Shown here: positions 13,302-58,025 of the stretch, one piece after another | Layout of the letters: every line of letters starts with the position of its first letter | Position numbering within the stretch: the stretch's first letter is position 1 | Assembly (NCBI GenBank): GCA_039621445.1 | Contig: CP154954.1 | Span: 39,145,816-39,209,815 of the forward strand | Reading direction: 5' to 3' | DNA length: 64,000 bases | Source of the DNA: Euglena gracilis | Lineage: Eukaryota | Program-made: the position numbers and the translations under genes | Notes under the pieces: model-generated | Databases searched by the model: none | The model's input: the letters and a program-made list of their open reading frames with translations, nothing else | Told to the model about the DNA's origin: nothing

Positions 13302-13311
13302 TCCCCCTCCC
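13302..13311 (-). promoter_or_regulatory. Polypurine tract of element A
   Basis: Minus-strand GGGAGGGGGA abutting the 3' LTR. Confidence 0.85.
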
Positions 13312-19442: not shown

Positions 19443-19636
19443 GATGCTACCCGAACGACGACGACAACGAAGGATAACCTTGTTGTCAGTCGCTTTGAGT
19501 GCTAGGCACTGAAAAAAGAGATGCTTCTATCCTTATCAAAAACTCTGTGAGAAAGACAGAAGATGCAGTGCAGGGGGGGGGGTATAAACGCGAAAAATTC
19601 ACATAAAACACACACATTCTCCAAAACGAAATCGTT

Positions 19637-21499: not shown

Positions 21500-21503
21500 C
21501 ACC

Positions 21504-22594
21504 CGTTTCACACCCGTGCTGCCGTGTCCCCCGGCAGCGCTGGGGTGAAGCGGAAACCCCCGCCCCGGGCCAGTTTCCGGCGTAGGATCGTTTTTTGGCT
21601 CCTCGAGCCGACTTGTGTCGGAAATTTTTTCCCATTCTGGCCCCCCCTGTGGCCGAAACTGGGCCATCATTTCCAAGGAGGAACTTCCCAGTGGACCCTC
21701 CCCGACCCCTGAGGGGGGTGTCACTGGGATCTCCAAGGGGGGTGCCTTTGGGGTTTCAACCCCTCCCTGCTCAGCTGAACCAGTGAGAGCCAACACCCCC
21801 CCCCTGGGTGTCATTTCTCACAGTTTCTGGGCCAAAAAGGGGGTTTTGGGGTGAAAAATGGCCTGTGGTTGCCTGAGTTGAAGAGACCCACCCCCCTGCC
21901 CCTTTTCCCACAGATGAGGTGGGGGGAAGACAAACCTCTCCTTCTTCAAATGATTGATTTTGTTGATCTTCCATTGCAATTGAAATTCCAAACTCAATTC
22001 TTGATTGTAATTGGATGTATTTGCCCACAACAAGTACAATGGTGTAAAAGGTAAAGAGGAAAACCCTGTGAAAAGAAAATGATTTTGATGCCCTTGATGG
22101 GCAGTTAAATTTAGGATTGAGTGCGCTGATTCCTAAGCGCTCTCAAATCCCAAATTCTTGCCCATTGCATCAAAATCAACCAACCAAAGTCAAAATCAAG
22201 GTTTCCCCCCTTGATTTTGATAAATTATGCTGAATTCCATCATTATTGAGCTTTGCAAACCCCTGCAAAAACTCCAGGAACTCAGGCGCCAATCTCTTAA
22301 AATTCTGTTCCAAGCGCTTGCAAGCGCTCTCACCAAATCCAACATTTTCCCTTAAAACCAAAGGAGAAATGCATAAAAAGCTTAAATTGTGCTAAATAAA
22401 CTCAAAATAACCCTTTGGGAATACCTAGCATCACTCAATCTCTCTCCTTGCACAACCAAAGCATGGGCGCCCTAGGAGAGGGAATTTTAATGGAAATCTT
22501 TAGAAAGCCTTAAAATTAGAGCAAAACCGCCCTCAAAAGGCCTTCTAAAAGGGAAAAACTCCGCCGCCCGGCGGTCGACCTCAAACGGTCGTCA
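21504..22594 (-). repeat. 3' LTR of element B
   Basis: Near-identical to 33943-35029; starts TGACG on the minus strand directly after the PPT. Confidence 0.95.
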
Positions 22595-22605
22595 CTCCCC
22601 CCCTT
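22595..22605 (-). promoter_or_regulatory. Polypurine tract of element B
   Basis: Minus-strand AAGGGGGGGAG abutting the LTR. Confidence 0.85.
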
Positions 22606-22859
22606 GCGACGAAAGTCGGGGGTTTCACCCCCCCTCCTTCTCGCTTTCCTTGGGATGGGAATGAAAGACACTTTGAATTTTTGCAACGCAATTGCGATAA
22701 CATCGTTCGAGATCGTGCATAAGTGGCGGAACGGTGTGGAGGAATCTATTAGGCCATAGATTCTATTCCACCACACCGAGCCCCCCCCCACGGTTCTCAC
22801 CACCGTGAAAGGAAATGGGGGCCCAACACCACTCAAAAAAATCCTTTCTTGAATGGATA

Positions 22860-23420
22860 AAAATCAGCCCCCCCCCCCACGGTTTTCCCAACCGTTTAGG
22901 GGATGGAGGGTCCATTATCACCAAAAATCCTTTCGGTGATAGATGAAAATCAGCCCCCCCCCCCCCTCGAGGGGAAGGCCTTGGGGAAAAGCTTGTCCCC
23001 CCCCCGGAGAGGTGGGCTTGACTTGCCCCCCCCCCCCCCCGGGGGGAAGGATTTGGGGAAAGGTTTGCCCCCCCCCCGGCGAGAGGTGGGCTTGACTTGC
23101 CCCCCCCCCCCGAGGGGAAAGCCTTGGGCAACCGCCCCCCCCGGCAAAGGGAGGGCTTGACTTGCCCCCCCCCCCCCCGGGGGTTGAAGAAGACAACTCA
23201 CCGGGCACCGCCCCCCCCCCCCCCGATCCTTGCCCCCCCCCCCCCAACCGCCCACCCCCCCATTGGGCCCCCCCCCCCCCCCCGCACCCCCTCTCCCCCT
23301 TTTTTTTTTTTTTTTAACCCCCCCCCCCCCCCCCCTTTTGCCCCTTTTTCCCCCCCCCCGATTTTCGCCCCCCACCTCCCCACCCCCCCCCCATTTTTTT
23401 TCCTTATTGTCAACATTGTT
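22860..23420. repeat. Homopolymer-rich low-complexity tract with ~60-bp imperfect tandem units
   Basis: Recurring GGGCTTGACTTG(C)n...GGGGAA units, then long C and T runs; sequence quality may be poor. Confidence 0.75.
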
Positions 23421-24896
23421 TTCTTTCCTCATCCTTCTTCTGTTTTTCAATTTCTACTCACTTCCCCAATATAATCATCCCAATATTTCCATCATTTTTC
23501 AACTCTTTTTTAGGTTTATTGGTTTTTTGTTTCCACTTTTGTTGTTTCCTTATTTTTATTTCCCGTTTTGTATTTTTGTTTTCCTTTTTTTTCCCAACCC
23601 AACTCCTTCCGCCCTTTTTCTCCACATTGAATTTAGTTGCAATATTTTTTCCTTTATTTGTTCCCTTTTTTTATCCGTCATTTGATTTCTGTGTTTTTTT
23701 CCCCCATTAATAGTTTTTTTCCTTTTTTCCCCCCACCTGAGTTTCACTCCAAATCCACTTAACAAAATTGATTAAAATTTCCCGCCTTGACCTTTCCCTC
23801 ACTTCCAAAGGGGAGTTGTCCGTTGATAAGAGGACCGGGGGAGGGAAAATGGGACCTTTGCCTATTTCCATTTGAAAGAATTCCATGTCCCTTTCACTGA
23901 AACAACCTTTTCGAGGTCAGGATGGCTAGCGGCATGGGTATCGGCAATTACCATCTCCACGTGCTCACTCCACGTGCTCCTCGTACACTGATACCAGAAA
24001 GCAACTCCTTGAAATAGTTTGAACTCCGTCTTCAGTTCATCCAATTCAGAGTCCCAGACTTCAAATTGATAATCCGTCCTGAGTAGGTGAACGAAACGGA
24101 TGGTGATGGTTGCTAGAGCCAAACGCCTCGTCGAAGTTCGCGTGTTGGGCTTCGGCGTCTTCCTTGGCTGCCGGTTTGCCTCCCCTTTCTGTGGTGGCAA
24201 ACAATGCAAAACGATATGATAGGATTCCTTTCCCCAATTGAAAATTTACCAATGTGGCTTAGCCCAGCCAAACCGACAGGGCAATCCCAAAACCACATTG
24301 TCATTACCCCCCCCCTCCAATACTTGGAGGAGGCTGTCAAAAGAACAAACCCTCGGTGGTGCTTCCGGTGGTTTGTCTTCTTTAAGAATTTTTGGTGAAA
24401 CTTCCAAACCGGAATCCACCCACAACAACATAAACAAAACAGGTGGCAATCATGCACTCATTCAACGTTTTGCTTTTGTTGTTGTTGGCAATATCCCTTC
24501 CCGTTCCGGGGTGGGATCCTTTGATTGGAAAACACCCACCTAAAAAAAATAGAATAAGATCCCTGGCTAGTTTCCCCCTAGCCACGAGAATCCTTCATTC
24601 ACCCTTGAAATCCTTTCACGGGAGTTCAATGGAAAATGGCAGAAAAATCAACAGGGGCAATGAAATATCCTCGATTGCCCACACCAGCCTCACCCAAACC
24701 AGGGTGTAGTGGTGAATGAAAACTTCAGGGGGAGAAATAAAAAAATGAAACCAATGACGAGGAAACTCCCGTCATTTTTCCCAGGGCCTCAGCCCTGTGA
24801 TGGTGTCCACCTGCATCTGTGAAGAGGCATAGAGCGGACCTCCCCCTCCCCAGGCAACCACTCCAGGCCCTTTTTCACCAATCCTTTTCCCCCTTT

Positions 24897-25842
24897 TCAG
24901 GTTGCCGTTGCCTTTAAATCCTTAGAGACATCTAACGGCAACCCTTTTCCCAGGTAATACGCTATTACGTCACTATTGTACTCCTGAAAAAAATGTTCCA
25001 CCGGTTCCCAATTCGCCTCCTCAAACCCTTGCCACTTCGTTAAGAAAAACATTTTTCCCTTAACGAACTTGTGGTTTAGGATTTTATCCACTAACCAGGT
25101 ATCTGGGGCACCTTCCGCCTCAGGTACCGTCCGCCGGTGGAAAAACAGGGGGATAGGCTTATCGGATGTGGGGTCCTCCACATATACCTTCAAAGCCTTC
25201 CGATGGGCCTTCATAATATGGCCCGGTTTAACCTCAATCAGGTAGGAATGAATTCCCTCCCTCGCGGTAACCTTGCAAGGGCCCAACCAACGGGAATCCA
25301 ATTTCGTGCCACTATCGGGGGGTCTCAGGTACCACACCAGATTCCCCACCTCCAATGGCTCCCAACCGTCCAAACCACGGTTGGCCCGAGCACATTGCTT
25401 GGCATGCAAATTATTCATTTTGCCAGCTACTACCAAATCAATTTCTCTTTGCCGAGAGAAAAATGATCTGGCATCTTCACAATCCCTTAACGGTTCATAA
25501 GGTAAACCACCCAATGAACGGTGTCGACCGAACAAGATTTGAAATGGGCTGAGGCCACTCTCCCCCGGCGTATCATGAATACGGTCTAGTGCTTGGGGGA
25601 GGGCTTCGACCCAATTCAGCTTGTCCTCAACCTGAATTTTCTTAAGCCGTTCCATTATTTGTTGGCCAGCCCTCTCCACCCTACCATTCGCCTGGTGATG
25701 GTAGGCCTGGGAGTAGGCTTGCCTAATTCCCATCAAGGCACACATTGTCTGCCACCAACCGGCGACAAAATGTGAGCCCAGATCGGAAGTAATAATGGAA
25801 GGGACGCCAAAAGGTCGCCAAGCATGCAACAGCATTTGCTTG
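24897..25842 (-). pseudogene. pol: Element B integrase, C-terminal half plus chromodomain
   Basis: FGVPSIITSDLGSHF, YHHQANGRVER, RWLGPCKV, WLVDKILNH...FLTKWQGFEEANWEP. Confidence 0.94.
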
Positions 25843-27813
25843 AACCCCAGGCCGAGGGATTTCTCCCAGGCGGATGCCCTGGTGGAGAAAGCCCTGGAAA
25901 TTATAAATTATTTTCAGCCAAAGTTGTGGTGGTTGGAGAACCCCCGCACTGGTCTCTTGCGAAATAGGGAGGTGGTGAAAAACCTGCCCTTTATCGACAT
26001 TGATTATTGTCAGTTTTCGGATTGGGGTTATAAAAAGCCCACACGTTTCTGGTGCTGCCCAGCCATTTCACAACTACGGTCGGTGTTGTGTGATGGCGAA
26101 TCATGTCCTAACCTGGTGATGGGGGACAATGGGCAGTTCCGGCACCGTGAATTGTTGGGGGGCAGAAAAATGAAGTTTACCTCCCGACAAAAAGGAAGGA
26201 TACCCCCCCTGGTGATTGATTATCTCCTAAGTGCTGGGGATATTCTGGGGGGCCAGCCCAAAGAAATTTCCCAAAATTCCCAGGATTTTGAGGAATGGGA
26301 AATTCCAGACCGTTGTCGTCATTTGGCCAACACCTTGAAGGTTAATCAGGTGTTGCCCATTGAAAACGAGCTGCAACTTTTGATGTCATCACAGACGTAT
26401 CTCCCTAACGGAGATGCCAGGCAGCTCAGAATTTTGGTTGACACGGGAGCCCAGGTGAACCTGGTCAAAAGGTCCATCGTCCCAAAACATTTGGCCAGGT
26501 CACCGCAAATGCCAATTCAGCTGGTGGCTGCCAACGGCCAATGTGTTTTGGGGGGCGACCAGTGTATTAAGTTGGAGTTGGGTTTTCAACGCAGGGGTAC
26601 GGGGCAGGGGGGCACCCAGGCCTTGTACCTCGAAGGGGAATTCTACCTCGCGGATATTGAGGTAGATGCTATATTATCATTTCCATGGTTAGCCGAACAT
26701 GGTCTGGGTGTGTTCCCACACCATAAGGCTTTGGTTTTTGACAATCCTAATCTGACTTTCTTGTACGGGTGGGATACAAGAAATCAGAAACGGAAATCCC
26801 ATAAGGGGAAGAAAAAACACAATTCACAAAAAAGAATTGGGGTTGTGGTTTCTGACTCCGGTGAATCCCCTGAAAACGCACCAACCACGGAGTCCCTGGA
26901 AAAAGAAAAGGTGTGGTTGGACCTGCAAAAAATGAATTTGCACCTACCCTTGCAAGGCTTTGATATGCAACCAAAATTCCTTGGCAAGAAGGAATTGCAT
27001 ACCATAGCCAAGCATCTCAACGAATCGCCAGCCGAGGACAAGGCAGTGAATGCCATAATCCAGGCTCGCGATTCGGGTGAGAAGGAGGACCCCAGGGTGG
27101 TAGCATTTCGGGATAAAATTTTTCAGGATTATGAAGGGGAGGTGTTGGGTACGGAGGTACCCCCTGACCCTCCCGTACGGGGACCTTATGGTTACGCCCA
27201 GATTCCTCTGAAGGAGGGGGCTGTACCCACAAGGCAAAAACCCTTTGTCTTACATGGTGAAAGATTTGAAGCTCACAAAAAGGTCACACAGGAATGGTGG
27301 GACCGGAAATTTGTTGAGCGATTACCCAAGGGAACAGCTTCGGAATGGCTGTCCGTAACGTTTGTAGTGCCGAAAAAAGGAGGTGAATGGAGGGGAGTGG
27401 TAGACATGCGGGGGCCTAACAGTCAAACTAGGCGTGTGTCCTACCCCCTTCCCGTAATTGAAGACCTCCTGGTAAAACAAGGTGGAAACATGATGTTTTC
27501 CATCTTGGATTTACGGCAGGCTTTCCACCAACAGCCGTTGGATCCGGAAAGCCGGCCCATCACATGTTGTAGTACCCCCCTCGGTCTTTTTCAGTGGAGG
27601 GTTAATGTGATGGGTCTAACAAACGCAAGCCAGCAGTTTCAACAAATGATGGAGGATCGCCTCTTCCCAGTGGGGGACGTGGCTGATCCTTACATCGACG
27701 ACATTTTGATTGGAACTCGAGTGGGTCCTGGTGAGGATTTACTCGCAGCACACGACAAGGATTTGCGAAGAGTCCTTGAAGTTTTACGAAAAGACAGATT
27801 TGTTTGTAGCTGA
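25843..27813 (+). pseudogene. pol: Inverted segment of B: C5-MTase C-half, aspartic protease, reverse transcriptase
   Basis: WWLENP (ENP at 25936), DYCQF...GYKKPTRFW, RIPPLVI; ILVDTGA (DTG at 26440), ILSFPWL; WRGVVDMR, LDLRQAFHQ, MGLTNA, YIDD (27691). Confidence 0.92.
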
Positions 27814-29113
27814 CAAAAGAAAATGCCGTCTTTTCGTAAAAGAAGTTGAGTTTTGTGGCCATGTTCTGGGTGGTGGGGTGAGAAAACCATCCCCTGGAAA
27901 GCTGATGGCCATTGAAAAATGGGAGCTACCCCAAACAATCACGGGTCTACGTGCTTTTTTGGGGTTCACAAATTATTACAGCTCATATGTGAAGGATTAC
28001 GCCCACATTGTCGCTTGCCTTCAAGATAAGCTCAAAGTTTCACGAGTGGACGGCAAGAAGGGTTCCAAGAAAAGGATTTCTTGGGAGCCATCCGACATTG
28101 AGGCATTTGAAAAAATTAAATCACTGTTGTGCAGTGAATTAATTTTACAACACGTTAAGCCAGACAAACCATTTGTTTTAAGAGTGGATGCCAGCCAGTA
28201 TGCGGTTGGTGCCACCCTTGAACAATTGGTTGGGGAGGATAGGGCTCCTACTCCAGAAGATGTACGGGCCAAGCGTACTGTGCCTGTCGCCTTCATGAGT
28301 AGGAAGCTAACGGGCAGCCAAAGAAACTGGGTACCTAGGGAACAGGAGACTTATGCCATAATCCTAGCCTTACAAAAGTGGGAATCATGGATTGGGCTGC
28401 AGCCCGTCCTGGTTCTCACGGACCACAAGGCTCTAGAATCTTGGGCTAGAGAGGTTCTAGACACGCCAAGTGGTCCCATTGGGAGAAGGGCTAGGTGGCA
28501 TCAGATTTTATCAAAATTTGACTTGTCGGTTGGGTATATCCCGGGGCGGGAGAATACCATAGCCGATTTGTTGTCAAGATGGGCTTACCCGGCCTCCCAA
28601 GCCTTGAAGGACATTTCAAGGCATGGGTCAGCCCTTGACACCGAGGAAATGAGGGAAATCATTCAAACAGAAAAAATGGAGGAAGCCGAATGTATGTGGC
28701 TACGGTTGGTGGACCAACCAACCACAGCCAACACATACATTCGTGGAGTCACCACACGGGGTGGTGCTACCACGGGGTCCGGGGACGCGGGTGGACGGTG
28801 CACACGACCGGGGGATAGGAAGTCAGAACCACTTGGAGGAACAAAACCCCAGGGTATGGGTTCAACCTCCACCCCCAAGGGAGAAAAAGGAAAACATGTT
28901 TCATTCTCAACTCGGGTTGACGAGTTTGGGAATGAGACAAGTCTTGTGGAGGAGGTCCAAGAGCCAAGGGGGGAGCATTTTCCATTGACACCCACTTCTA
29001 TACCAGCTTCGCCAACAATGCCAACCCCTGAACCTGCTGCTGCGGCTACCACTGAGGTACCTGGGGCAGACCGAGAATCACCTGTGTTGTCTTCAGGTGG
29101 TTTGAGTGGTTAG
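27710..29113 (+). pseudogene. pol: Inverted segment of B: RT connection, RNase H and linker
   Basis: VEFCGHV, LRAFLGFTNYY, VDASQYAVGATL, PVAFMSRKL, EQETYAI, VLTDHKAL, ENTIADLLSR. Confidence 0.93.
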
Positions 29114-29163
29114 GGGGGGAAGCCACTTCTACAACCGATTCCTCACCCATCCCCCCTGGTTCT

Positions 29164-29681
29164 GTGTGGGATTTATCCTGGAAGGAGGAATATTTAAAAT
29201 GTCCCCGTTGGTCACCAATTTTTCAAGCTACCCAGGATTCAAAGGTGCCGTGGCCTGAAAATATAAAGGTTTTTGGTGACAAAATGTTTTTCGAGGAGAG
29301 GCTTTGTGTGCCCAAATCTCTCCAAGAAAAACTCATTCGGGATCACCACTCATACCAAGGGCATGTGGGATTCCCAAGGCTATGGGAATGCATGTCCCTT
29401 AGGTATGATTGGGCTGATTCCTCACTCGCTCGAGATTTTGCTAAAGGAGTCATGGGCCTTTGTGGGACTTGCCAAGCGTGCCGAAGGCCGGCGAGTCTTA
29501 AGGGTTTAGTGGAATCTACACCCATACCCCCAGCCGTAATGTATTCGATGGCCCTTGACATGTTTAGCATGCCTCTCGTGGAGTGGGAAGGGAATTCTTA
29601 CGACTCCATGCTTGTGTGTGTGGATCGTCACTCCGGTTGGATAGTGGCGATCCCCCACCTAGCAAAAGGATTTACGGGAGC
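29164..29681 (+). pseudogene. pol: Inverted segment of B: integrase zinc finger and start of catalytic core
   Basis: HH...GHVG...CGTCQ, MALDMF, VCVDRHSGWIVAIP. Confidence 0.92.
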
Positions 29682-30304
29682 CAGGGGGGACTTGCGGCAA
29701 TAACCTCAAAAAATCCAACCGGGTATCGCCTGTAGTCCCAGGTCAAAATGTCTGTGTGGGGGTGGAAGTCCGTCCAAGGAGCATTTTCAATTGACAAAAC
29801 TTCATACCCCCGTTCTGCCAACCGCCTCCCTACTGAACCCGTGCCAGCGAATAAGTCTAATGCCTGAGGTCGCTGGGCTGATGGTGGGGGGTTGGGCTGT
29901 GGCAGGTTTGTATGCAAAATGGGAACCCTTGAACATTTCCCTTCCCTCCAGGAGTAACGAGTCCGATTCAAAGATCTGGGGGGCTGATCCAAAGAATGTT
30001 TTTCACCACACCCTGAATCAGCCATAAAATCCTGTACAACCCAGTTTTTTGAATCAGAAATATTTACACCGTTTTCCTCACAGGGGGGAGAGACACGGCC
30101 ATGGGCAGCCCCCCCCCTTCTCAAACTGCCCCTGGCCCCTCTATTGGGCCCCAGGGGGAGAAGAGGTGGGCCCACCCCCCTTTGACCATGCACCCCCCTT
30201 GCCTGAGGAATTTCGCTGAGTGGCTGGCTGCCCTTTACCCTTGGGCTGCCCCTTGCCTTTTCCATTATTTTGCCAAAATTCCTTAGATTTAGCAAGGGCC
30301 TCAC
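29682..30304 (-). pseudogene. Element B post-Gag linker plus N-half of a C5-cytosine DNA methyltransferase
   Basis: LDLFAGTG (motif I FxGxG, 29837-29860), EVLSIE, DILTWD, IAASPP (motif IV, cut at the expected Cys codon). Confidence 0.88.
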
Positions 30305-30309
30305 TCAGC

Positions 30310-33300
30310 GGTTTATCACACTCATAGAAATAATATCAACCCTCCCCACAGTTGAAGCATGGGTATGGCGACCTGCCCCGACCCGATGCCTGCGGGGTCC
30401 AGGTCTGCCCTCCCTTGCCTTGCCGGGCTGGGGGTGCTGGACTTTGGGTTCGCGACCATGAAGCTGCACCTGGCCGCGAAGACGAAGAAGGGGACCTGCC
30501 CCGCTGGGCTGGCTGGGCTGGCCCCTTATCTCCCTTTGGAGCTGGCTGTGGGGCAGATTTTGAGGTGTGACCCTGCCCCCCGGCCGCTGGTGCTGAAACG
30601 GATGTTGGGGACACCGGGGGGGTCTGGCCTTTTTCCAACACCTGTATTTTCCCCGAGCCTTTTGTTGTCGATTTGCTGAATAATCTGGGAAAATGGTGCT
30701 GATTCAAAGCCAAATCCTGCTTCTCCCGAAGAGCCAACCTGCCCTCGGCAAAAGCAAACATTTCCTCAACGGTCATTAGTTGTTCCACCAATTCGGCGTT
30801 GAGGAAATTTTCCATTCCCTGCAATTTCCTTCCATTTACGGCTGTTAATTTCAGTGCCTCCTCCGAAGAACTGAAATAAATAAGGCAAATGGCACCAGGG
30901 TTTTTGATAACCACTTTCCGTGGATCAATACCCCCTGTGATCTGGCTCACACTCCTTTTAATCCCATCCACCGTGGGATTTGGTATCCCTGTGAGCCTGA
31001 CAATGGGTTGTTTACGGGCTCGGTTATCCTCCTCTTCTATGCAAAACTTGCTTAAAAAAGGAGGAATTCTTTCCAAAAATAATCTCCGAGCCTCCCCAGC
31101 TGTGGCATCCTTTACATGGTGCCAGGCACTGCAAAATTTAATCCAAAATTCTTGCAGATCAGCCCGGGTAATTTTTCCTTCGTTTACCATAGTTACCTCC
31201 TGCCATATTTTCCGAGCCGTCAGCCCCTTACTCGAGGCATAACGGTTCTGGAATTGGGCTAATATGGTGGGGTAACTTAATTTAGCTCCATTCAACCGAT
31301 AGAGCCTGATTTCCTCCCTTAATCTGGGTCCTAAACATGCCTCAAAAACCTGCAGCTTTTGCAAATCAGAATACGGTTTCCCTGATGTCAACCTATCCCA
31401 GTAAAGATTCCAATCTACTTCAAAATCTTGCCAGGAAATGCTGCCCGCTTCATCAAAATAGGGCTTAGCACCTCCCTGCAAAATTTCAAAAGCTACTGGG
31501 TCACCGATAAAAGGAAAACCCAACCCGTTACCTGGGTTGGCTGCAGCCCCCCCTGTCCCGATGGGCCTAATCGAGAAAGCAGGGGCTGCAGGACATGCAC
31601 ACAATGACACAGAAGAAACCACTGCCGTATCTTGTGTGTCCTCCAAAACAAATCCCCCCTCAATAACTAAGGGAGGGGAAATGTTTGAACTTGCAGATTT
31701 ATTCTGAGAAATAATCTGATCTGAAAATGCTGGGTCAGCACTGGGCACCGTGCTGGCCAGTGAGCTGGAAGGCTGCCCCAGGGGCTGCTGCTGTCCAGCC
31801 GACGGCAGGCCCAGCCCCCTTGGCAGCCCGTGAGCAGGCTGCGACTGGCCTGCTGGCTGGCCAGGCTGCTGGGGCTGGACGACGGGCTGCTGGGCCAGCT
31901 GCTGCCCAGGCTGTGGCAGCTCCACTGGGTGTAGGGGCTGCTGGCTGCCCTGCCGCAGCCACCACATGTCAGAAATTTTCTGCAAAACTCCTCTCGGTTC
32001 TGCAGTTGGGTGTACGGGTCCATTTTTTTGTAAGTCCTGCAACACTTTCTGCAACTCGAAAGTGTTCCCCCCAACTTTTGCAAGTCCCTGCCTTAATTCC
32101 TCCACCAGCCCACCAAATTTTTTCTCCTGGGAAAAAATCTGCTGATGAACACTCTGAAAATTCTGCTGACAATCCGTCAACAATTTTTGCATTTCTGAGT
32201 GTCGTTTCCCTACTTCATCTGAAATATTCTGGTGCAGTTTCTGAATACCACCACCAAAACCATGGAGGGCCGTATTCATTGCTGAATTTTGCTCACCCAG
32301 CTGGCGAACATAATCAGCGAACTGCTGGAGCTGCTGAGCCTGGCCCTGTACCGTACTACGCAGCGATACCAGGTCAGCCTGAACTTCAACGATTTTGGCA
32401 GCGACAACGGCCAGCTCCTGGAGAGTTTCTGCCTCCCCCCCCTGAGCTGGCTGGGCGGCTTTAAAATTCTCAGCAAACCGCTGAAAATTTTCAAGCACGA
32501 GATCCTTAATTGGAAAGGCAGCCACCTGATTTTGCACTTGTTTCAAAATTTCCTGTGGCAGGTTGTCCAAAATTCGTAAAAATTCCTGCCTCAGGGCCAA
32601 AAACTGATCACGGCTCGAAGAAAACTGCTGGGCCAGTTTTTCCTCAAAACTTTTTTCCTGCCCAACAAAAAGTTCAAGTGCCTGTGCGTCAATTTTTTTG
32701 CACAGAAATTTGCACCTGGGCTTCACATTTTTTCTCAAAAATTTCAGAAATATGGAGGCAGTCAGCCCTGGCCGTTTCTTCGATTCGTGCAGCCATGTGC
32801 TCCACCAGGTGGATGTCGACTGCGGGGGGTTGTTGCTGCTGCTGCTGCTGTTGCAGAACCCACTCTTCGTTGGCTTTTTCCAAAGCCAAAACCCGAAAAT
32901 TCAGGTGCTGCACAGTCCACTGGAGGTCTCTGTTACTTTGTAAAAATTGCCGCCAGGGGTCTTCAAATCCCTGATTTTGTGAACCCCCCCTGGGGGTGGC
33001 TTCAGAACTTTCATAGGCTGGGGGTTGGACCTCCTCCTCACCCCCCTCGATGAAAATATGAGGAGGCTGGGGGGCTGCAGCAGCTGCTGGCTGACCGTGA
33101 TCAACCTCACGGTGCAGCCGTTTTTGCTGAACTTCATCACTGCCTGGTGATGAAGCCGGTGTTCGGGGTCGTCGAGCAGAAGTAGAGCTGGGCTGGTCCT
33201 TCCGGTTTTCCTCTGCCTGCTCGACTTCTGCTCTGACCCGTTCGCCGCTGTCCCAGTTATTATTATCGTTTAAGCCCAGCACATTGACCTGTGCTTGCTT

Positions 33301-34411
33301 TTCAAAGAAAACTGGGCTGGGGTTATCACCCCCCTGCCCTGCCGAGGCACTTCCCGTTTCCTTCGCCAGCCCATCTACCTGGGATGGTTGGGAAAACTGC
33401 AAAAGTGCCACCGGCTCTTGGGCTGGTGTTGAAGAAACTGGTTGAGCTGGAGGCAAAGGCAATGCAAAAGCGGGTAATGAGGCAGCTTCCTTAAAATTTT
33501 GTTTTTTTTTTTTTTTTTTCCCTCTTTTTTTTTTTTTTTTTTCTTTTTTTTTTCTTTTTCTTTCTTTTTTTTTTTTTTTTGTTTTTTTTTTTTTTCTACC
33601 CTGTAAAAGTCTGGGAGAGGTTGCAACTCAGGCAGCACAAAACCGTACCCCATATTTTGCAAAGGCAAAACCCCTGAAAAAGGCTCTGGAAAACACGGTT
33701 GGTTGGAAATGACAACCTGGCCATCCCCACCCTGAAATTCCAACATCTGTCCCATATTTGTGGGGGTTCTGAGTTCAGATAAACTGGTTTCGGGTCCCAA
33801 CTCCCTGTTCCCCGAAACTCCAATCGTCAGATTTGCCAACTGAGATTGGGCCATTGGCTGATCATCAAAGAAAACATTCTGAGCAGGGATTTCATACCCA
33901 AAATTTCCGACAGAAGGCTGAAGGATCAACCTCTGCTTACCATTTTTCACACCCGTGCTGCTGTGTCCCCCGGCAGCGCTGGGGTGAAGCGGAAACCCCC
34001 GCCCCGGGCCAGTTTCCGGCGTAGGATCGTTTTTTGGCTCCTCGAGCCGACTTGTGTCGGAAATTTTTTCCCATTCTGGCCCCCCCTGTGGCCGAAACTG
34101 GGCCATCATTTCCAACGAGGAACTTCCCAGTGGACCCTCCCCGACCCCTGAGGGGGGTGTCACTGGGATCTCCAAGGGGGGTGCCTTTGGGGTTTCAACC
34201 CCTCCCTGCTCAGCTGAACCAGTGAGAGCCAACACCCCCCCTGGGTGTCATTTCTCACAGTTTCTGGGCCAAAAAGGGGGTTTTGGGGTGAAAAATGGCC
34301 TGTGGTTGCCTGAGTTGAAGAGACCCACCCCCCTGCCCCTTTTCCCACAGATGAGGTGGGGGGAAGACAAACCTCTCCTTCTTCAAATGATTGATTTTGT
34401 TGATCTTCCAT
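30310..34411 (-). pseudogene. gag: Element B gag-like ORF (coiled coil, capsid-like region, degenerate CCHC knuckle), frameshifted
   Basis: ORFs 34235-33375, 33462-32689 and 32738-30336 tile upstream of pol; ends CFNCGEG...YFYEC. Confidence 0.8.
33923..33942 (-). promoter_or_regulatory. Primer-binding site of element B (initiator tRNA-Met-like)
   Basis: Minus-strand TGGTAAGCAGAGGTTGATCC directly after the 5' LTR. Confidence 0.8.
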
Positions 34412-35029
34412 TGCAATTGAAATTCCAAACTCAATTCTTGATTGTAATTGGATGTATTTGCCCACAACAAGTACAATGGTGTAAAAGGTAAAGAGGAAAA
34501 CCCTGTGAAAAGAAAATGATTTTGATGCCCTTGATGGGCAGTTAAATTTAGGATTGAGTGCGCTGATTCCTAAGCGCTCTCAAATCCCAAATTCTTGCCC
34601 ATTGCATCAAAATCAACCAACCAAAGTCAAAATCAAGGTGTCCCCCCTTGATTTTGATAAATTATGCTGAATTCCATCATTATTGAGCTTTGCAAACCCC
34701 TGCAAAAACTCCAGGAACTCAGGCGCCAATCTCTTAAAATTCTGTTCCAAGCGCTTGCAAGCGCTCTCACTAAATCCAACATTTTCCCTCAAAACCAAAG
34801 GAGAAATGCATAAAAAGCTTAAATTGTGCTAAAAACCCAAAATCACCCTTTGGGAATACCTAGCATCACTCAATCTCTCTCCTTGCACAACCAAACCATG
34901 GGCGCCCTGGGAGAGGGAATTTTAATGGAAATCTTTAGAAAGCCTTAAAATTAGAGCAAAACCGCCCTCAAAAGGCCTTCTAAAAGGGAAAAACTCCGCC
35001 GCCCGGCGGTCGACCTCAAACGGTCGTCA
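33943..35029 (-). repeat. 5' LTR of element B
   Basis: Near-identical to 21504-22594; flanked by the TSD and the PBS. Confidence 0.95.
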
Positions 35030-35033
35030 CACC

Positions 35034-36440
35034 AGTATCTGGACCAGGCTGCTGGCTATCCAGCTGCGGAATTTCTGGAGAATTAGCACAATGGCATATG
35101 TCTCCTTTTCGCGAACGCTCCGTTTAACCTGTCCTTTCCCGTTGTCGCCCTGTAGCTTCCTGCTGAAGAAAGCCACAGGTCGGAGTTTATTTGCCGCATT
35201 ATGCTGGATAAGAACCCCGCCAACAGCGTAATCGCTGCTGTCGACCTCCAGGACGTACGGTTTGTATGGATCCGCGATATCGAGAACCACGTTCTCGACG
35301 AGCAAGTCCTTGATTTTATTTAAGGCCTCGCGCATTTGGTCATCCCAAATGACTTTTGCGTTATCGGGTGTCCGATTTTTGAGTTGTCGGGTTAGGGGTA
35401 CCGCGATTTTCGCGAAATCTTTCATGTAAATCGCGTAGTATTGGGCTAATCCCAAAAATCCCTTTAAATGCGTTAAGGTCTTAATGACCTCAGGAGTCCA
35501 TTTCTTAATGGCCTCCATCTTGCTGGGTGCGGCTTGACGCTGCCCGTTGCTCAGGATATGCCCGCAAAACTTAATAATTTTGCGAAACAGGTGCATTTTG
35601 GAACCCTTGACAAACAGCACATGCTTTTTGAACGCGGATAATACCGCCCGCTCATCGCGATAATGCGGTTCGAGGATATCCTCGCCCGATTTCGCGGATG
35701 GCGGTTGGGTTCCCACCAGTACATCATCGATGTACACCAGAGCAAACGGTAATTCGCGCAAAACCCACTGGATCATGCGTTGAAACATGGCTGGGCCATT
35801 CTTAACACCCATAGGGAGTACCGTCCATTGGTACACACCCTTGGATGTCACGAATGCCGTGTACAGTTGTGAATCAGGGTGCAAATACATCTGATGAAAA
35901 CCGTCTTCTAGATCAAAGATTGACCACAACCTGTTATCCGATTGTTTGGTGATCAAATCCTCGATCAGCTGTACCGGGAAGGGGTCATCCTTCGTTTGGG
36001 AGTTCAGGTACCGGTAATCCAGCACCAATCTCCACTTCTTCTGACCAGACTGGTCAGCGGGTTTGTGCACCACAAAAGCTTGTGATGTCCATTCGCTCTT
36101 GGAAGGGATAATCCACTTCCGCTGGATGAGCTTCTCAATCATCTCGTTGAGAGCTTGTTCGCGTTTAACCGAACAACGGAAGAATTTCCGGTGCATGGGC
36201 TTAGCGCCATCCTTGAGCTCGATTTTGCAAACACCGAACAGACCGCGAATCGCGGGGTCGATGTCGCAGGCGTAAACTGGGTTATCCAGTACACCATGGA
36301 ATTCGCGAGTAATACGCGAACAATAGTCAGCAGACTTGGGGTGTTGGTCCGCACTCTCAATAACCGCAGAAATGTGCGTTGAGGGTGTGGCATCCCCATT
36401 GGTACCAGGGTATCTTGGCACACGCAAATCGGATATTCCG
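35034..36440 (-). pseudogene. pol: Element A pol: reverse transcriptase and RNase H (interrupted by B)
   Basis: WRLVLDYR, FDLEDGFHQ, LPMGVKNGP, YIDD, FLGLAQYY, VDSSDYAVGGVL, PVAFFSRKL, EKETYAI. Confidence 0.96.
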
Positions 36441-36870
36441 TATGCGTCAAAGAAACAAACGCGAAAAATGATTTCTTTAACAGGTGGTAAAAATAATCTA
36501 CAAAAGTCCTCGAATAGTGGTACATCAGCGGGTAAATCCCACCAATGAAAACATACATAGGATAGTTTGATGAAACCAATCCGCATTCGGATTGACGGGT
36601 ATGAGGAGAGATCCTCGCGCTTCATCGCGGAGGATTTTATACACCACAGCCAGAAGAAGTTTAGGGGGAGGGTTCAACCAAAGCACCGTATCACCCCAAA
36701 TTTTAAGGAATGTGTTGGAGTGTCGCGACCAATGTCGCGACAAGCGTGCATGTGCTTGTGATGAAAACGCATCAATTTCCAACGACAAATCGAAGGAATC
36801 AGCCAAAGCCGCGATTTTGGAGAACCATTCCTCCAAAATACGGTATTGACCAAAATTAAATTCGTTCCAT
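36440..36870 (-). pseudogene. Dam-like (N6-adenine/N4-cytosine-type) DNA methyltransferase domain in element A pol
   Basis: IDAFSS (36759-36776), W-x4-LWLNPPP (NPPP at 36663-36674), LLIP-x5-WF, WWDLP; spacing resembles the DIRS1-type MT/Dam domain. Confidence 0.75.
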
Positions 36871-38012
36871 ACGCGCATCGCGTATGTGTCAACCTGGTTC
36901 GCAGGTCGAAGAGCGGTAACGCAATTCAGGGAACCGCAAACATAGGCCAAGGGTGTGTCATCCACACTCCCAAGGGGCATTCCCAAAGGTTGATGGGTTG
37001 GATGGGTGCATACCCAGTACATATCATGCCAGATGGAGGTGGGGGAGGTGTGCGACACGGATTTCGCGGTCCCAAACAACAAGGCAATTCCTCGTTGTTG
37101 CAGCACTTGATGTACGGTCGCGCATTGCGATCCGCAACCAAGTGTATGGGTTCGCGAAATCGGGATTAGTGTTGATGTTTGGACTAAACATCCACAATCG
37201 AAATCTGGCTGGGCGGAAATTCTCCTACAGTGCACACATTGGAAGGAAGTGTCGGAGTAGTGGTCCTGGTCGCGCATGTTTGTCTGGTGGGGTTGTGTGT
37301 AAAAGTTGGGTTGCGCTTGTGTAGCTGCTGGGGGGCGTACAGGTGTATCTGAAAGCGATACATCTGGTGGAAAACGGGGTATTGGTGCAGCTGGGCGACT
37401 ACTCGACACCGTGATCACTTCAGGCCTTTGGGCTTTCGTCTTGTAACCCAGTGGAAAGAGGGGGGTACCGCTTCTCGCTTGCCCTGCCTCATGGGGAACG
37501 GAAGTTGGTGTGTCAATGGGCAGGGGGTGAACTTTCTCGGTACTCCCGGTGTGGAAAACGTTGGTAGGTGTGGTTGGTAACGGGGTAAAAGTTTTTGAAA
37601 ACGGTGTGGAAAAATTGGTGGCTGTCGCGGTTGACGCCACTGGTGATGAGGGTTTGGGGGGCAATGAAGAGAATGGTGATGTGCGCAAACCGTGGGAGTG
37701 GCAATCCACTACCAGCCGGTGCTGACGTAAAAAGGGGTATCCCAGAATTACGTCAGAACCATGGATTCCGGATTCGTATCCCCAGGTAGCCGGAAAATTT
37801 TGCGGTTGGGGGGGGTGTGAGTGGTGCTTGGGGATGAGGGGTAGGACTAAGTCCAAAAAGCATCCCAAGTCACCATCGCACATGGGGGTGTTGCCAGCCG
37901 TCGTAATTTTGATCGGCTTCTTGGCTTTCACCAAGGGGGGTGTTGGTATCAACCCGAACCGAAAAAGTGGTGCAATGCGACAACCAGTGTCAATGAGAAT
38001 TTTGACTTTTGC
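36871..38012 (-). pseudogene. pol: Element A aspartic protease and Pro/Thr-rich linker
   Basis: KILIDTGC near 37980-38004 and DVILGYPFL. Confidence 0.88.
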
Positions 38013-38499
38013 ACAAAAATTTTTGGGTTTTGATTTCTGCTCGGACCAAAAGTTCCATGGGGGGTAGGCAAAGTGAAGGGTCTGGCGAAAATACGTTTTC
38101 TTGCCAGCTTTCCCATGAACCCTTTCCTACTTTGCACAACATTCCGAGCGGAAAGTTGGAGTGGGGGGTGGGGGACCCGAAAATTTTCCGGGTACCGACC
38201 AGGAAGGCAGATGGGCAGGGGGGGGCAGGGTTGATCAGGTCCTACCTCCATCTGTTCATCAGCCCAGAGGTCCGTGCCCTCGGACCTCGGGCTCCCCTGC
38301 TCCATGTCCGAACCGGCCGAATAGTCGGCTATGGGCCTTTTAGAGGTATAAACGGATTTCAACGTGCGCACCGCCATGCGGGCTTCGTCAAAATTGGTAT
38401 CCGTGGTCTCATCCCCCTCCCTGACCGAAGCCGGGGTGTCATCCTCCAAACAAGATATCTTGAAAACGACTTTATGGCGGTTGGAGGAATGACCCTTGT

Positions 38500-41400
38500 C
38501 ACCGCGATTCATACCGCGATGACGTTGGCCAGGGCGCGGAGAACGAGAACGTGGACATTTGGATGAGTGGTCATCACTCGATCCACAAAGCGAACACCGA
38601 GATTTGTGTCGCGAATATGGATAACGGGGGGATCGGTTTCCCGATTTCCCGTCAAACCGTCGTGGTGACCGGGTATCCCGTCGACCATGACCGGTGTATC
38701 AGGGTTTTCCCAATGAGGATCGCGAAGAGGATGATCCGCTTCGTGAACGCGATCGCGATGCCTCGCGATAAGGATCACGCTTCTTGGCCGGGGCACCGGG
38801 TGACCTACCCCGAGGGGTACCGTGTTTCCGCTCATCGCGGAACGGGATCCGGGGGCTAATACCACCGGAACGGGGACCCGATGACTGTGAATTGCCCGAT
38901 TGGCGTGAAAGCGCGGAGGAACCCAAACCCGGTGATGAGGTCGAGCCTCGCGGGCTCTGAACACGCTTTTGTGCTTCTGGATTAGGGCACTCCCGAGACA
39001 TATGTCCCGATTTGTCCCAAAAAGCACACTTTATCCGTGGCTTGGTCCGAAGAACGCGGGTATCGCGTTTTCAATCCCGTGGCGGGTGAAGTGGGTGAAA
39101 CCGGTGATTTTTGCAATGCGTTTACCGAACCAGCCGGTAATCCAGTGGTTGGGTGTGCATTATACGCGGATTGAATCTGACCAAGAAGCTGTGATAGCTT
39201 CAACTGCTTGGAAACATAATTCCAGCGTTGGTGAAGAGTCATGGGATGACTCGCCAACTCCTCACGGTGGATATCCTTAATGAGGCTAGGCGTGAAATGC
39301 ATGAGAACAGAGTCAAACTGTTCGCGCATTTGCTTTTCACTGAGTTCATCCACTTCAGCAGCAAGTCCTAACCATTTGGCATACCATTGGTCAATGGACT
39401 TCCACTTGCGATCGGGTGGGGCGCATTGCCGCCACTTGGTCTCTAGAGTAATCCTAGCGACCAAACTTGAACTGGTGGAAGCGTATTGCTCCACCAGGTC
39501 ATCAAAGGAAACGCGGTAGCGAATGACGAGTTGTCGCGCGCGCTCCTTCTCATCCTCTGGGAGGCAATCGATGAATTCCATCTTGATCACCTCCGGGTTT
39601 GTGTCCTGGGTTGGCCCCTTCAATGCCCAGTAGTACTCCCAGTCCCGGAAAAACTGTCTTCATGTGGTTGGATCACCGTCCCACTGGGGTTTCACCTTGT
39701 TCGCGATTGCGATGGTGCCTTTGAAGTCTTTCTGAGAAACCCAATGACCCTCGGTGGTATTCTGTGGATTCGGGCCCGGGTACGCTCGAGCACCAAGCGT
39801 ATCCTTTCCGGATTCTTGTCGGAATCGCGAAATTTCTGGTGAAGGTGAATCCTGGTACCGGATCTCCGGTCGCAAACCCTGTTGGTCACCCGTAATAGGG
39901 GGACACTCCGGTGTGGGGGTATGTCGTGCATGCAACATGTGACCCACTCCCAGTGTACAGGTTTGGCACATTCTACGCACAAGCATGGAATGATGGATTT
40001 CTTGGTGGAGACTTGGCGGAATCGCCGTGTTTTCCGAAAATTCGGTTCCCTTATTGGGAAATTCATCCGAAAACTGGGTTTGGGTTGTGGGCAAGGCCAA
40101 TGGTGGCACAATTCGCGGAATCGCGGGTTGTGACACTCGGGACACGGGTGGTGGTGGTGGTGCATGTGCACCTAGATTCGGGTTGTGAAAACGCGAATCT
40201 GGAACATTTGGCGCATCTTCGGCAATGCATACTGTCGAATTTCGGTTTGAAACCCGCTGTTGGTTGGACACATTGTCCAGACCCACAGACAAGTCATGCA
40301 CACTATGCTGCAAATGCTCAGCGAGTTGGAGTTGGCCGCAAATACGGTCAACCTCATCCTCCAAAGCGCGAATATGCTTGCGGTAACGGGAAAAGTCATC
40401 CGTGTGCAGAATCCTTTCGGATATTCCGGTGACATCTTGGACAAGTTTCCCGTGAGACTCATCCAGTAATTGGAGTTGTCCCGTTAATGCTTTTACAGCT
40501 TTTGAGAGAATCTGCAAAGGTGGTGTCACCTTGGTTGGTGTGGTAGTGGATACAACCGGTGCAGGGTCATCCGACAACGTGTTTGTGGTACCCACGGGCA
40601 AATTTCCGGGTTGTGGCTTATCCAAAAACGCGGAAATTCGCTCATCCAACCTGGTAATCTCACCTTTCGTGGATCGGGCATTCCGATTCACCGATTCTTC
40701 AAGCCGTAATAGGCTGTTGCAAAAATCTTGCAAGGTTTCCTGATTGTCGGTGAGCATTTTTTCAGAAAATGCCTCGAAATTAGGTTTCTAGGTATTCCGT
40801 GAACTGGAACCTGCAGGCAAAGACTGCATTTCCGTTAATTTCGTAGAAACCGATGCATACCGGGTCTGGAGTTCCCCAATAGCAGTCTGAATACCGCTAA
40901 TGTCCGGAACTCGGTGGGAAAGTGCGGAATTGCTTTGTTGCAAACCCGCAATGGCTGAGTTAATCCCGCCAATGTCGGACTGCAACTGCAATCGCAGGGA
41001 ATCCTGCCGTTGCGCCATTACCGCGACTTTCGCGCTCAGATTGGATAATCCAACCTGATTTGCGTCACAATAGCGGGTTTTCTGCTCCAAACGGGAAAGT
41101 CGCTCCTCCAACTGCCGCACATACGTGTGGGGAGCAAAATTATCGTTGGCTTGTGACTGGAATTGCCCAAACTTTTCCGTTTCATCGCACAACAGCATAA
41201 TGGGGTGTTGCGATTCATGGAAAGTTGCGGATAGGGTGGTGAAATGGTCCATAGACACAAATCCACCAGAACTGGATGTTGCAGACGAGGAATCTCGTGC
41301 ATGCAACTGTTGTTGCAAATGCAACAACGCGGATGAACAGGACTCCATTTGTCCCGATAGGTGTTGTAGTGAGTCATGCAAGTGCAGAAACTTGGAGTCA

Positions 41401-42308
41401 TTCCGCGTTTCCGCTTCATGCATGCATTTACTAATTTGCCGGAAGTTCTGCGGGAGTTGTTGGCACATTTTGTCAAAGGTTTCCCGAAAGTTTGCAAGGT
41501 CAATACCCGCACTTTCAAAATTCCTCTGGCAATATTTGCCAACTTCCTGCAAGTAATTCCAGCAGTGTTCCAGCTTGGTGAAGACATGTCTCTGGTTGTC
41601 CTCATCAAACTGAAGCACTTTGTTCAGTGCGGTTGCACATTCTGCAACGCATTGTTGCACATGGTGGAACTGCCTCACAAGGGGGTGATCCCCTGGAAGC
41701 CGAGCAACGATATCGTGCACATCCTCAGCAGTGAGGAGCTCACCAGTGCCCTTCCCATAGCCATCCATTGGTTGGGATGTACCGGAGAATTCCGGTACCA
41801 CTAGACGAGTCTCCACTTGCCAAGGCAGTGCCGGATAGCACCCAAGATCGGGTGGTGGTGGCAAAGCTCTGTAAGGGTTTGCCGGTGGAAGAGCGGGTGG
41901 GGGTTGAAAGAAACACGGGGTTTTTAGTCCACCATCACCAGAGAAGCCCGGTGGCGGAATCACCACGGGTCTGTCTGGTGTATGCAGCTGCACCATTGCC
42001 GCAAACGGAGGCGAATACCCCCGTTGTGGCAAGGTGAGTGCGGAAGAGGCCGCATTGGCCTCTGAGGCCAATGATGTGGAGGGCTCATCGCCGACCACTG
42101 TCAATGATGACAATTGTTGCAGTCTTGACAATTGAGCCAATTGTGCCTCATCGGCGTGGGAAATGGAAGCACTTTCACATAATAGCTTCCAATCCCCTGT
42201 TTCTTGGTCAATGTCTTGCAATGATGCCAGTAATAAGGCATAGTTGAATTGATGGTTGGGGCTTGTGCTTTTCATCTTTCTGATGGCAAAAACAACAAAA
42301 ACCCACAA
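38500..42308 (-). pseudogene. gag: Element A gag-like region (coiled coils, capsid-like helical region, degenerate CCHC, RS-rich tail)
   Basis: ORFs 42308-40788, 40757-39660, 39623-38982 and 39001-38699; frameshifted CF..DKSGHMSREC knuckle near 38986-39027. Confidence 0.8.
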
Positions 42309-42465
42309 AACTAAGCAGTTGTGCTGGCACCAGAGGGGCTGTAACGGGTAATACCGTACAGAGCCTTCCGGAGCTTGCTCGTCTGCTTAGACGTTGACTA
42401 GAAGCCGGGAGCTGACGCTGCGACCGTGATAACGGTGCAGGGGCCCTCCGCTGCCAGTCAGCGTA

Positions 42466-42618: not shown

Positions 42619-42931
42619 AGTGTACGTCTGATTCCCCAATTCCCCTTTCCCAATTCCCAAAAGCCTTCGCTTTCGCCTTGGCGCACCTACTTGGGAACTG
42701 AAAATCAGAGTAACAGAAAACCCTTTTCCCACTTCCCAAGAAGCAAAGCACAGAGCAATGCAGGGAGGACGGACTGGATATCCAAGTCCGGTCCGGAGAA
42801 AAGGAAGACAAACAGAATAAAGAATACCACCTGTGGAGAGAGAAGGGGCACCCATTAGGAAATCCTAATAGGATCTGCTTCCATCCTAACTTCCTCAACG
42901 GAAGGGGACAGAAGCATACGCCTGGTACACA
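42619..42931 (-). repeat. 5' LTR of element A
   Basis: Near-identical to 12990-13301. Confidence 0.95.
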
Positions 42932-57963: not shown

Positions 57964-58025
57964 AAAGAAGAAGAATGTAAATGTGTCCCAGGCGACAAAT
58001 AGAAACAGACAACAAATGTTTGAGG

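Follow-up and report, generated by a model that had tools for sequence, protein, structure and literature searches.

This study concerns a retroelement present in two copies in a 64,000-nt stretch of the Euglena gracilis genome (NCBI GenBank assembly GCA_039621445.1, contig CP154954.1, positions 39,145,816 to 39,209,815 of the forward strand), hereafter referred to as the window. On the basis of its chromodomain and Pfam domain order, the element is classed as a chromovirus, i.e., a Ty3/gypsy element with a chromodomain. Its pol carries, upstream of the reverse transcriptase (RT), a segment that is very probably a methyltransferase (MT) fold derived from Dam. As an explanation of the whole we lean slightly towards a Dam-derived class-I MT module in the chromovirus pol that has been retained while its catalysis is poor or lost.

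Dam-type identity of the domain

Self-comparison of the window revealed that the two copies are inverted and 94–98% identical. Their MT domains are located as follows:

49902..50366, plus strand: Dam-like MT domain of the plus copy, uninterrupted (P0001 residues 286-440; Pfam Dam E 4.4e-4; own family hidden Markov model (HMM), residues 287-400; AlphaFold2 predicted local distance difference test (pLDDT) 91.6)
36419..36848, minus strand: Dam-like MT domain of the minus copy, frame broken near 36567 (Pfam Dam E 5.7e-4; family HMM match split over two frames)

The domain order of the element is long terminal repeat (LTR), long gag-like open reading frame (ORF), CCHC, protease (PR), Cys motif, MT, RT, RNase H (RH), integrase (INT), chromodomain and LTR. 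An earlier note on this DNA, made from the sequence alone, had placed the domain inside a Ty3/gypsy pol upstream of RT. This placement held: MT lies between the LIDTGC...ILGYPFL motifs and RVT_1, and pol ends in a chromodomain.

Three of the motifs listed in that note, IDAFSS, W-x4-LWLNPPP and WWDLP, were all found in both copies within the segments it had assigned to the domain. IDAFSS is encoded at 49977-49994 (+) and 36759-36776 (-), WGDTVLWLNPPP at 50055-50090 (+) and 36663-36698 (-), and WWDLP at 50208-50222 (+) and 36530-36544 (-), giving a core motif span of 49977-50222 (+) and 36530-36776 (-). Motif IV is NPPP in both copies, as claimed, and its codons (50079-50090 (+), 36663-36674 (-)) are the same DNA; in the DNA alignment the copies are identical from motif I through these codons. 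The fourth motif, KLIPDVVEKV, had been attributed to both copies and occurs in the plus copy only (50091-50120), while the minus copy reads KLLLAVVYKI at the equivalent place as a result of 7 substitutions within about 26 nt just 3' of NPPP (50094-50119 on the plus strand versus 36634-36659 on the minus strand). The spacing of the LLIP block had to be corrected from LLIP-x5-WF to LLIP-x6-WF (LLIPANPNADWF in the plus copy). The plus copy has an unbroken reading frame across the MT domain (P0001, window 49047-50438). In the minus copy, a 1-nt length difference near 36567 puts WWDLP out of frame with the upstream motifs. Both window copies are dead.

As a separate observation, 7 of the 11 differences between the MT segments of the two copies are packed into the 26 nt or so after the NPPP codons, suggestive of a localized cluster of mutations or a short conversion tract.

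Dam (PF05869) was the sole Pfam family matching the MT-segment ORFs. The plus and minus copies scored 20.4 bits (E 4.4e-4) and 20.0 bits (E 5.7e-4), with the alignment covering profile positions 22-104 and 20-105 of 169, respectively. The profile match that had been proposed as a check was therefore found in both copies, at scores below the Pfam gathering cut-off of 28.1 bits. The same is true of all 9 scanned members of the clade of 13 described below (17.2-27.0 bits).

A HMMER search with the 131-aa MT segment against a library of 1.84 billion representative proteins yielded 327 matches at E<=1e-3, including 66 at E<=1e-10. When 29 of these relatives were scanned with Pfam, 27 matched Dam at E<=0.01 and 14 exceeded the curated cut-off, with a maximum of 42.8 bits; those above it include P0017 (35.8 bits), P0022 (37.9), P0026 (39.7), P0025 (38.8), P0027 (39.7) and P0095 (42.8). 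Look-alikes in the ESM Atlas were eukaryotic clusters, and in one of them (score 0.85) 11% of the members carry Pfam Dam.

A direct link to phage proteins was also obtained. According to tblastn against 50,697 phage records, the MT segment matched 130 records at E<=0.1; the best 10 of these were all from Lactococcus phages, annotated as DNA methylase or methyltransferase, at E 1e-5. BLASTP against a 140-aa protein of Lactococcus phage 3R16S (YP_009875801.1), which itself scores 117 bits on Pfam Dam, gave 32% identity over 88 aa (E 6e-13). The alignment register pairs IDAFSS with LDPCST, LWLNPP with VFCNPPY and LLIPAN..WFH with MLIPAR..YFH (window and phage, respectively).

The AlphaFold2 model of the domain, built from a 62-row alignment, had a pLDDT of 91.6 and a predicted TM-score (pTM) of 0.85. 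In this model IDAF ends one strand and NPPP immediately follows another. A library of predicted viral structures returned 18 matches at E<=1e-3, headed by phage DNA N-6-adenine methyltransferases (E 1.5e-8, TMq 0.64, root-mean-square deviation 2.8 Å, 143 columns). In a wide structure search of about 48,000 PDB representatives, all 50 matches listed were S-adenosylmethionine (SAM)-dependent class-I (Rossmann-fold) enzymes; one of them is a polyamine aminopropyltransferase, one a decarboxylase, and the others are methyltransferases or annotated as such. Adenine-N6 enzymes among the matches listed were CAPAM (Z 10.3), METTL5 (9.1), T4 Dam (8.0), M.TaqI (7.8) and EcoDam (7.5).

Homology to Dam is shown by three independent lines, namely relatives that pass the Pfam cut-off, the direct match to phage Dam and the predicted fold. 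The Dam-like identity proposed earlier was thus upheld (phage Dam BLASTP E 6e-13, relatives above the cut-off, structure match E 1.5e-8), as was the likeness to the MT domain of DIRS1, since both belong to the phage-type Dam (PF05869) family. The Rossmann methyltransferase fold, whose absence would have spoken against the proposal, was predicted with high confidence. That the motif likeness is fortuitous and the segment a mere spacer between protease and RT is extremely improbable. Such a spacer would suit the sub-threshold Pfam hits and the lack of a sequence match in the PDB; it is contradicted by the alignment with a Pfam Dam protein (E 6e-13), which superposes motif I, motif IV and the LIP..F block, by the 14 of 29 scanned relatives above the Pfam cut-off, and by the phage Dam structure matches at E 1.5e-8.

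Conservation of the domain and divergence of motif IV

Across families, the MT domain is about as conserved as RT. Between the window element and P0002, identity was 71% for MT, 76% for RT, 90% for RH, 78% for INT and 42% for the linker upstream of MT. With the more divergent P0016 and P0034, MT identities of 44.5% and 35.5% stand beside RT identities of 42.4% and 37.0%. In the alignment of 13 near relatives, linkers were unalignable and the MT block contained 16 invariant columns. Because MT identity tracks that of RT at three divergence depths, the domain is not neutral at family depth, and the neutral evolution relative to RT that had been raised as a possible objection was not seen there.

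In three DNA runs of organism A, 21,581, 40,926 and 10,962 contig pieces aligned to the 4.6-kb pol stretch, and roughly one in five of them matched the window at 99% identity or more; the family is therefore very abundant in this organism and was recently active. Of the 412 variant places on this stretch, none of the 40 listed fell in the NPPP codons; this number is insufficient to show that NPPP is common to all genomic copies.

Motif IV statistics were based on 147 aligned family rows covering the motif. Asn occupies position 1 in 110 rows, Pro-Pro positions 2-3 in 127, and an aromatic residue (F, Y or W) position 4 in 104; the canonical [ND]PP[FWY] is present in 74. In M.TaqI and Dam, the aromatic side chain of (D/N)PP(Y/F/W) forms a stack with the flipped adenine, and catalysis is strongly reduced when it is lost. 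We inferred a maximum-likelihood tree from 91 well-covered rows with the motif columns left out; it grouped the window element with P0002 (Shimodaira–Hasegawa-like approximate likelihood ratio test (SH-aLRT) 96) within a clade of 13 (95), with a sister pair (94).

The survey of motif IV across relatives, suggested in the earlier note, gave a clear result: against 74 of 147 rows family-wide, none of the 15 clade members has the canonical motif. Motifs in the clade of 15 are NPPP, HPPL, NPPI (five), NPPV (two), NPPL, YPPI, NPHY, HPMF, HPPF and NPPH (two). Four members have His or Tyr instead of Asn, and two have a substitution at one of the two prolines. The earlier statement that the NPPP change is shared by the family can be kept in part: the canonical motif is lost across the clade, but NPPP itself varies, with HPPL in P0002. 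When the 115 columns were ranked by conservation within the clade, position 4 of motif IV was 92nd and the Asn 44th. By comparison, 16 columns are invariant in the clade of 15, among them H43, A16 and W102; H43 is present in 100% of sequences inside the clade versus 12% outside, and A16 and W102 behave similarly. The motif-I-like D-x-F and other residues invariant family-wide are retained in the window domain.

Another variable position is HMM column 86, where the window has N, two residues after the invariant Pro of LLIP. W occupies this column in 87% of 76 other rows; in the clade of 15 the aromatic residue is mostly missing and R is commonest (40%). The phage comparator also has R there, and the column is not diagnostic alone.

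One explanation of the degenerate motif is that the domain is a decaying passenger, captured once and of no present function in the family. Both window copies being dead, and the low Pfam Dam scores throughout the clade (17-27 bits), agree with this, as does clade-wide degeneration of motif IV. The two window copies differ in MT by 9 non-synonymous and 2 synonymous changes, a ratio (pN/pS) of 1.37, against 0.78 for the linker and 0.51 for RT; these values derive from just 11, 14 and 14 differences between dead copies. The value of 1.37 is in line with a passenger; it also fits decay after insertion and is uninformative on selection at the family level. Scans of metagenome contigs with the window domain and P0002 gave no confirmed locus, limiting dN/dS to the two window copies. 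We nevertheless regard the passenger explanation as improbable, given that MT identity follows RT at all three depths while linkers are 42% identical or unalignable, and that 16 columns are invariant in the clade of 15. It is further opposed by long uninterrupted polyproteins containing the domain, namely P0002 (1208 aa, MT-RT-RH-INT, with HPPL) and P0010 (923 aa), and by the recent activity of a family hugely repeated in organism A.

Probable role of the domain and comparison with known systems

Dam-like domains are known from Ty3/gypsy-type LTR elements. According to the available text of a preprint by Fernandez-Moreno et al. (10.64898/2026.05.21.726589), such "DAM-LTRs" comprise at least four or five lineages, some of them chromovirus-like; their DAMs derived from DIRS-like elements, and their motif is a conserved Asn-Pro-Pro with a next residue that is mostly Tyr or another aromatic. 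The window element shares with DAM-LTRs, as described there, its Ty3/gypsy type, a Dam-like domain in pol, the chromodomain found in some of them, Asn-Pro-Pro, and a shortened Dam with a five-stranded sheet. Its Dam-like domain lies in the RT coding region: in the minus copy the protease motifs and the MT domain share one ORF (36525-38126), RT, RNase H and integrase come after it, and a 313-nt LTR pair is present. It differs from the described DAM-LTRs in having Pro after Asn-Pro-Pro, in a clade with no canonical member among 15. A PR-DAM-RT position is not given in the available text of the preprint.

Judged against that text, Dam in LTR elements is a known category, and the window clade is a divergent addition to it. 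The preprint screen was run with hmmsearch at E<=1e-5 and probably missed this clade, whose Dam scores are 17-27 bits. Surveys based on a strict Pfam Dam threshold will undercount such elements. The architecture described as unusual in the earlier note is thus real, with MT upstream of RT in the window and in 9 relatives, but less exceptional than supposed, as DAM-LTRs including chromovirus-like ones have already been reported (10.64898/2026.05.21.726589).

The 9 scanned relatives with Dam upstream of RVT_1 are P0002, P0010, P0016, P0023, P0026, P0027, P0034, P0057 and P0109. One scanned relative, P0141, has Dam downstream, in the DIRS-like order RT - RNase H - Dam. In P0095 (522 aa, JGI/IMG), Dam (42.8 bits, residues 89-187) precedes a copia-type RVT_2 domain (E 2e-65). 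The available preprint text (10.64898/2026.05.21.726589) mentions DIRS and Ty3/gypsy hosts only, unlike this copia-type protein.

In the alignment of near relatives, the nearest proteins have the same PR - Cys motif - MT - RT order. The Cys motif is a conserved stretch of the PR-MT linker:

49515..49565, plus strand, and 37188-37238, minus strand: conserved Cys motif CxxCxR[IV][ST]xQxx[FY]DCGC in the PR-MT linker (motif search and alignment)

It was found in 8 proteins (P0001 of the window, P0002, P0005, P0007, P0008, P0010, P0011 and P0028), 160-230 residues upstream of motif IV and within an otherwise unalignable linker. All carriers except P0028 belong to the near clade of the tree. The four cysteines may form a zinc-binding module that travels with the MT variant.

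The domain belongs to one family with the MT of DIRS1-like elements, and P0141 shows their domain order. In contrast to DIRS1-like elements, however, the window MT lies upstream of RT and is accompanied by an integrase zinc finger, a Tf2-type SH3 domain and a chromodomain rather than a tyrosine recombinase; no recombinase family was found in Pfam scans of 7 and 44 window ORFs. The phage orphan Dam (PF05869; YP_009875801.1) has the same size and fold and the blocks D-x-(F/C), W-x4-(L/V)-x-x-NPP and LIPA..(W/Y)FH at 32% identity; it differs in that the Lactococcus phage 3R16S protein has NPPY and stands alone, whereas the window domain has NPPP and is a polyprotein module.

A possible functional parallel is offered by METTL14-like pseudo-methyltransferases, nucleic-acid-binding scaffolds in which the methyltransferase fold is under selection despite a degenerate motif IV (EPPL in METTL14). 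METTL14 is a cellular protein of the MT-A70 family, and a partner or binding function of the window domain would be suggested by analogy only. Retrotransposons with cytosine-5 methyltransferases likewise carry a captured DNA methyltransferase in their coding region, as stated in the available text of de Mendoza et al. 2018 (PMC5890265); that C5-cytosine enzyme is of another family, while the window domain is of the amino-methyltransferase type.

The reading that we slightly prefer combines these features as follows. With I, V, L, P or H in place of the base-stacking aromatic residue, the clade domain would most likely catalyse adenine-N6 methylation poorly or not at all. Active members of the family would then retain it for a non-catalytic role in the polyprotein or cDNA complex, for example binding of SAM or nucleic acid. 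The active site is less conserved than the scaffold and the clade has acquired invariant residues of its own, which would argue for a changed role rather than decay or unchanged catalysis. The narrower proposition that the domain is catalytically impaired but selected we consider evenly balanced.

The main competing explanation is that the domain is an active N6-adenine methyltransferase in which an aliphatic residue or proline replaces the aromatic, depositing N6-methyladenine (6mA) on the cDNA or RNA:DNA intermediate of the element during replication and so bringing new insertions into transcriptionally permissive chromatin. Marking for permissive chromatin is the model proposed for DAM-LTRs in the available text of the preprint (10.64898/2026.05.21.726589), which reports 6mA enrichment on DAM-LTR copies in three hosts, two ichthyosporeans and Euglena. 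An active enzyme would also account for the intact Asn-Pro-Pro in the window and 9 of 15 clade members, the Asn in 11, the retained D-x-F and other family-wide invariants, the confident predicted fold closest to phage Dam, and conservation on a par with RT. We consider it rather unlikely all the same: canonical motif IV occurs in none of the 15 clade members, Asn has become His or Tyr in 4 of them and one proline is lost in 2, and the motif is less conserved than many clade columns, the opposite of the pattern of an active site. The role of the stacking aromatic in M.TaqI and Dam points the same way. Representative eukaryotic DAMs with the canonical motif produced no 6mA gain in a heterologous E. 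coli assay (10.64898/2026.05.21.726589, available text).

Several results weigh against a retained module with poor or lost catalysis. As to identity, both window copies miss the Pfam gathering cut-off (20.4 and 20.0 versus 28.1 bits). Sequence searches of the PDB with the single sequence and with a 62-row profile found nothing relevant (best E 0.36 and 2.3, to unrelated enzymes), and Foldseek against the PDB gave no match at E<=1e-3, the best being CAPAM at E 2e-3. As to retention, pN/pS between the window copies gives no sign of constraint on MT, the counts being small and both copies dead, and some representatives may derive from decayed copies. In RNA of organism A (about 5% of one run), 78 reads fell on the 4.6 kb, 67 of them only partly on the stretch, and none reached at least 99% identity, so this sample holds no evidence that this copy is expressed. 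Among environmental data, a leaf-litter metatranscriptome contained a 0.20 share of the sampled words. As to catalysis, Asn is retained by 11 of the 15 clade members and Pro-Pro by most of them, and activity might persist if an aliphatic residue packed against the flipped base. Finally, the E. coli and 6mA results of the preprint, as far as its available text describes them, are not transferable to this clade.

How mobile elements engage host epigenomes is illustrated by retrotransposons that themselves encode DNA-modifying domains. What is new here is a divergent clade in which the domain is RT-like in conservation and the catalytic motif is not, together with an upstream Cys motif. A conserved domain with an unconserved catalytic motif is the signature of an enzyme turned to another use. 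Alongside the negative E. coli assay (10.64898/2026.05.21.726589, available text), relatives with NPPF versus NPP followed by I, V, L or P provide a natural contrast for testing whether such domains act by methylation. More speculatively, having given up the canonical catalytic motif and gained invariant residues of its own as well as the upstream Cys motif, the clade may keep a pseudo-methyltransferase under purifying selection that does not write 6mA and instead reads or binds adenine or 6mA, a SAM signal or its own cDNA; together with the chromodomain it might steer integration or shield cDNA, in a lineage missed by Pfam-threshold surveys. We put this forward tentatively and think it doubtful in its full form.

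Element architecture and other features of the window

The remaining features of the two copies are listed below:

48710..49060, plus strand: putative retropepsin of the plus copy, in a frame other than that of MT (LIDTGC 48758-48775, ILGYPFL 49007-49027; motifs only)
37641..38126, minus strand: putative retropepsin of the minus copy (LIDTGC 37980-37997, ILGYPFL 37728-37748; motifs)
50618..51349, plus strand: RT of the plus copy, YIDD at 50936-50947 (Pfam RVT_1 E 5.9e-25)
35030..36673, minus strand: end of MT, RT and RNase H of the minus copy, YIDD at 35723-35734 (RVT_1 2e-24, RT_RNaseH_2 2.2e-24)
51310..53267, plus strand: RNase H, integrase zinc finger and Tf2-type SH3 of the plus copy (Pfam; self-BLAST)
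19872..21522, minus strand: minus copy resumed past a 13.5-kb insertion, end of RNase H and integrase (Integrase_H2C2; self-BLAST)
19715..19825, minus strand: chromodomain of the minus copy, with one in-frame stop (Pfam Chromo E 8.1e-11)
42619..42931, minus strand: candidate 5' LTR of the minus copy, 313 nt, 98.7% identical to 12990-13301, followed by a TGG-starting sequence resembling a primer-binding site
12990..13301, minus strand: candidate 3' LTR of the minus copy, preceded by a purine run (GGGAGGGGGA), with satellite beyond (direct repeat and flanks)
21506..35030, no strand assigned: nested LTR element splitting the minus copy inside RNase H (LTRs 21506-22595 and 33945-35030, 1090-nt direct repeats, 98.8% identical)
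38982..42386, minus strand: gag-like frame of the minus copy, three ORFs in one frame with stops between (ORF list, self-BLAST)

Pfam found no protease family in the window PR segment at E<=10. The protease is supported by its LIDTGC and ILGYPFL motifs, which aligned relatives share, and by weak RVP hits in three more distant relatives. Downstream of MT, Pfam identified RVT_1, RT_RNaseH, Integrase_H2C2 and SH3_Tf2-1. According to self-BLAST, 19872-21509 matches 53267-51630 at 96% identity. The chromodomain of the minus copy scored 42.1 bits against a cut-off of 25.1, with the in-frame stop read as X, and the plus copy ends before its chromodomain position. Degenerate CCHC knuckles were noted downstream of the gag-like frame (weak zf-CCHC hit, E 0.021).

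The plus copy retains just 48282-48729 of the gag-like region, has no equivalent of 38028-40668 and changes frame between PR and MT. Stops are present after MT and inside the integrase, homology to the minus copy ends at 53267, and no LTR was found for this copy.

The minus copy is an LTR element inserted in a satellite array, as indicated by its LTR pair and by the same 29-nt satellite on both outer sides. This satellite (unit about GCCGCACCAGCAGCCATTTGCTTGCTTCG) forms two arrays, 8418-12990 and 42930-46650, apparently parts of an originally single array into which the minus copy was inserted. Beyond the second array comes the plus copy, inverted relative to the minus copy.

Between the chromodomain and the purine tract with the 3' LTR, the minus copy contains 6.3 kb (13302-19650, minus strand) of about 60% GC, compared with about 50% elsewhere in the element. 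Two long proline-rich ORFs in it, 17410-19326 (638 aa) and 15512-17575 (687 aa), are without a Pfam match. The stretch could be an extra element gene or a further nested insertion.

Direct repeats at 53268-53626 and 63654-64000 are 95% identical, 10.4 kb apart, and start exactly where the homology of the plus copy ends. These repeats probably represent LTRs belonging to a further element, by which the plus copy is truncated. The interval between the repeats contains an RVT_1 ORF on the minus strand (55273-58092).

On the plus strand there is a second gypsy-type element, whose RT is at 27367-27792 and whose RNase H and integrase extend to 29700. The stretch 25717-26316 (+), at the start of P0156 and upstream of the protease motif (ILVDTGAQ) of this element, reads WWLENP...DYCQFSDWGYKKPTRFW...RIPPLVIDYLL. 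Pfam returned nothing on this stretch at E<=10. We take WWLENP...RIPPLVIDYLL to recall C-terminal motifs of C5-cytosine methyltransferases, and the stretch may be the other methyltransferase implied where the earlier note called the chromovirus domain "different".

Finally, a LINE-like element at 1095-5710 (+) contains Exo_endo_phos, RVT_1 and RNase_H and has about 70% GC, compared with 49-55% in the chromovirus copies.

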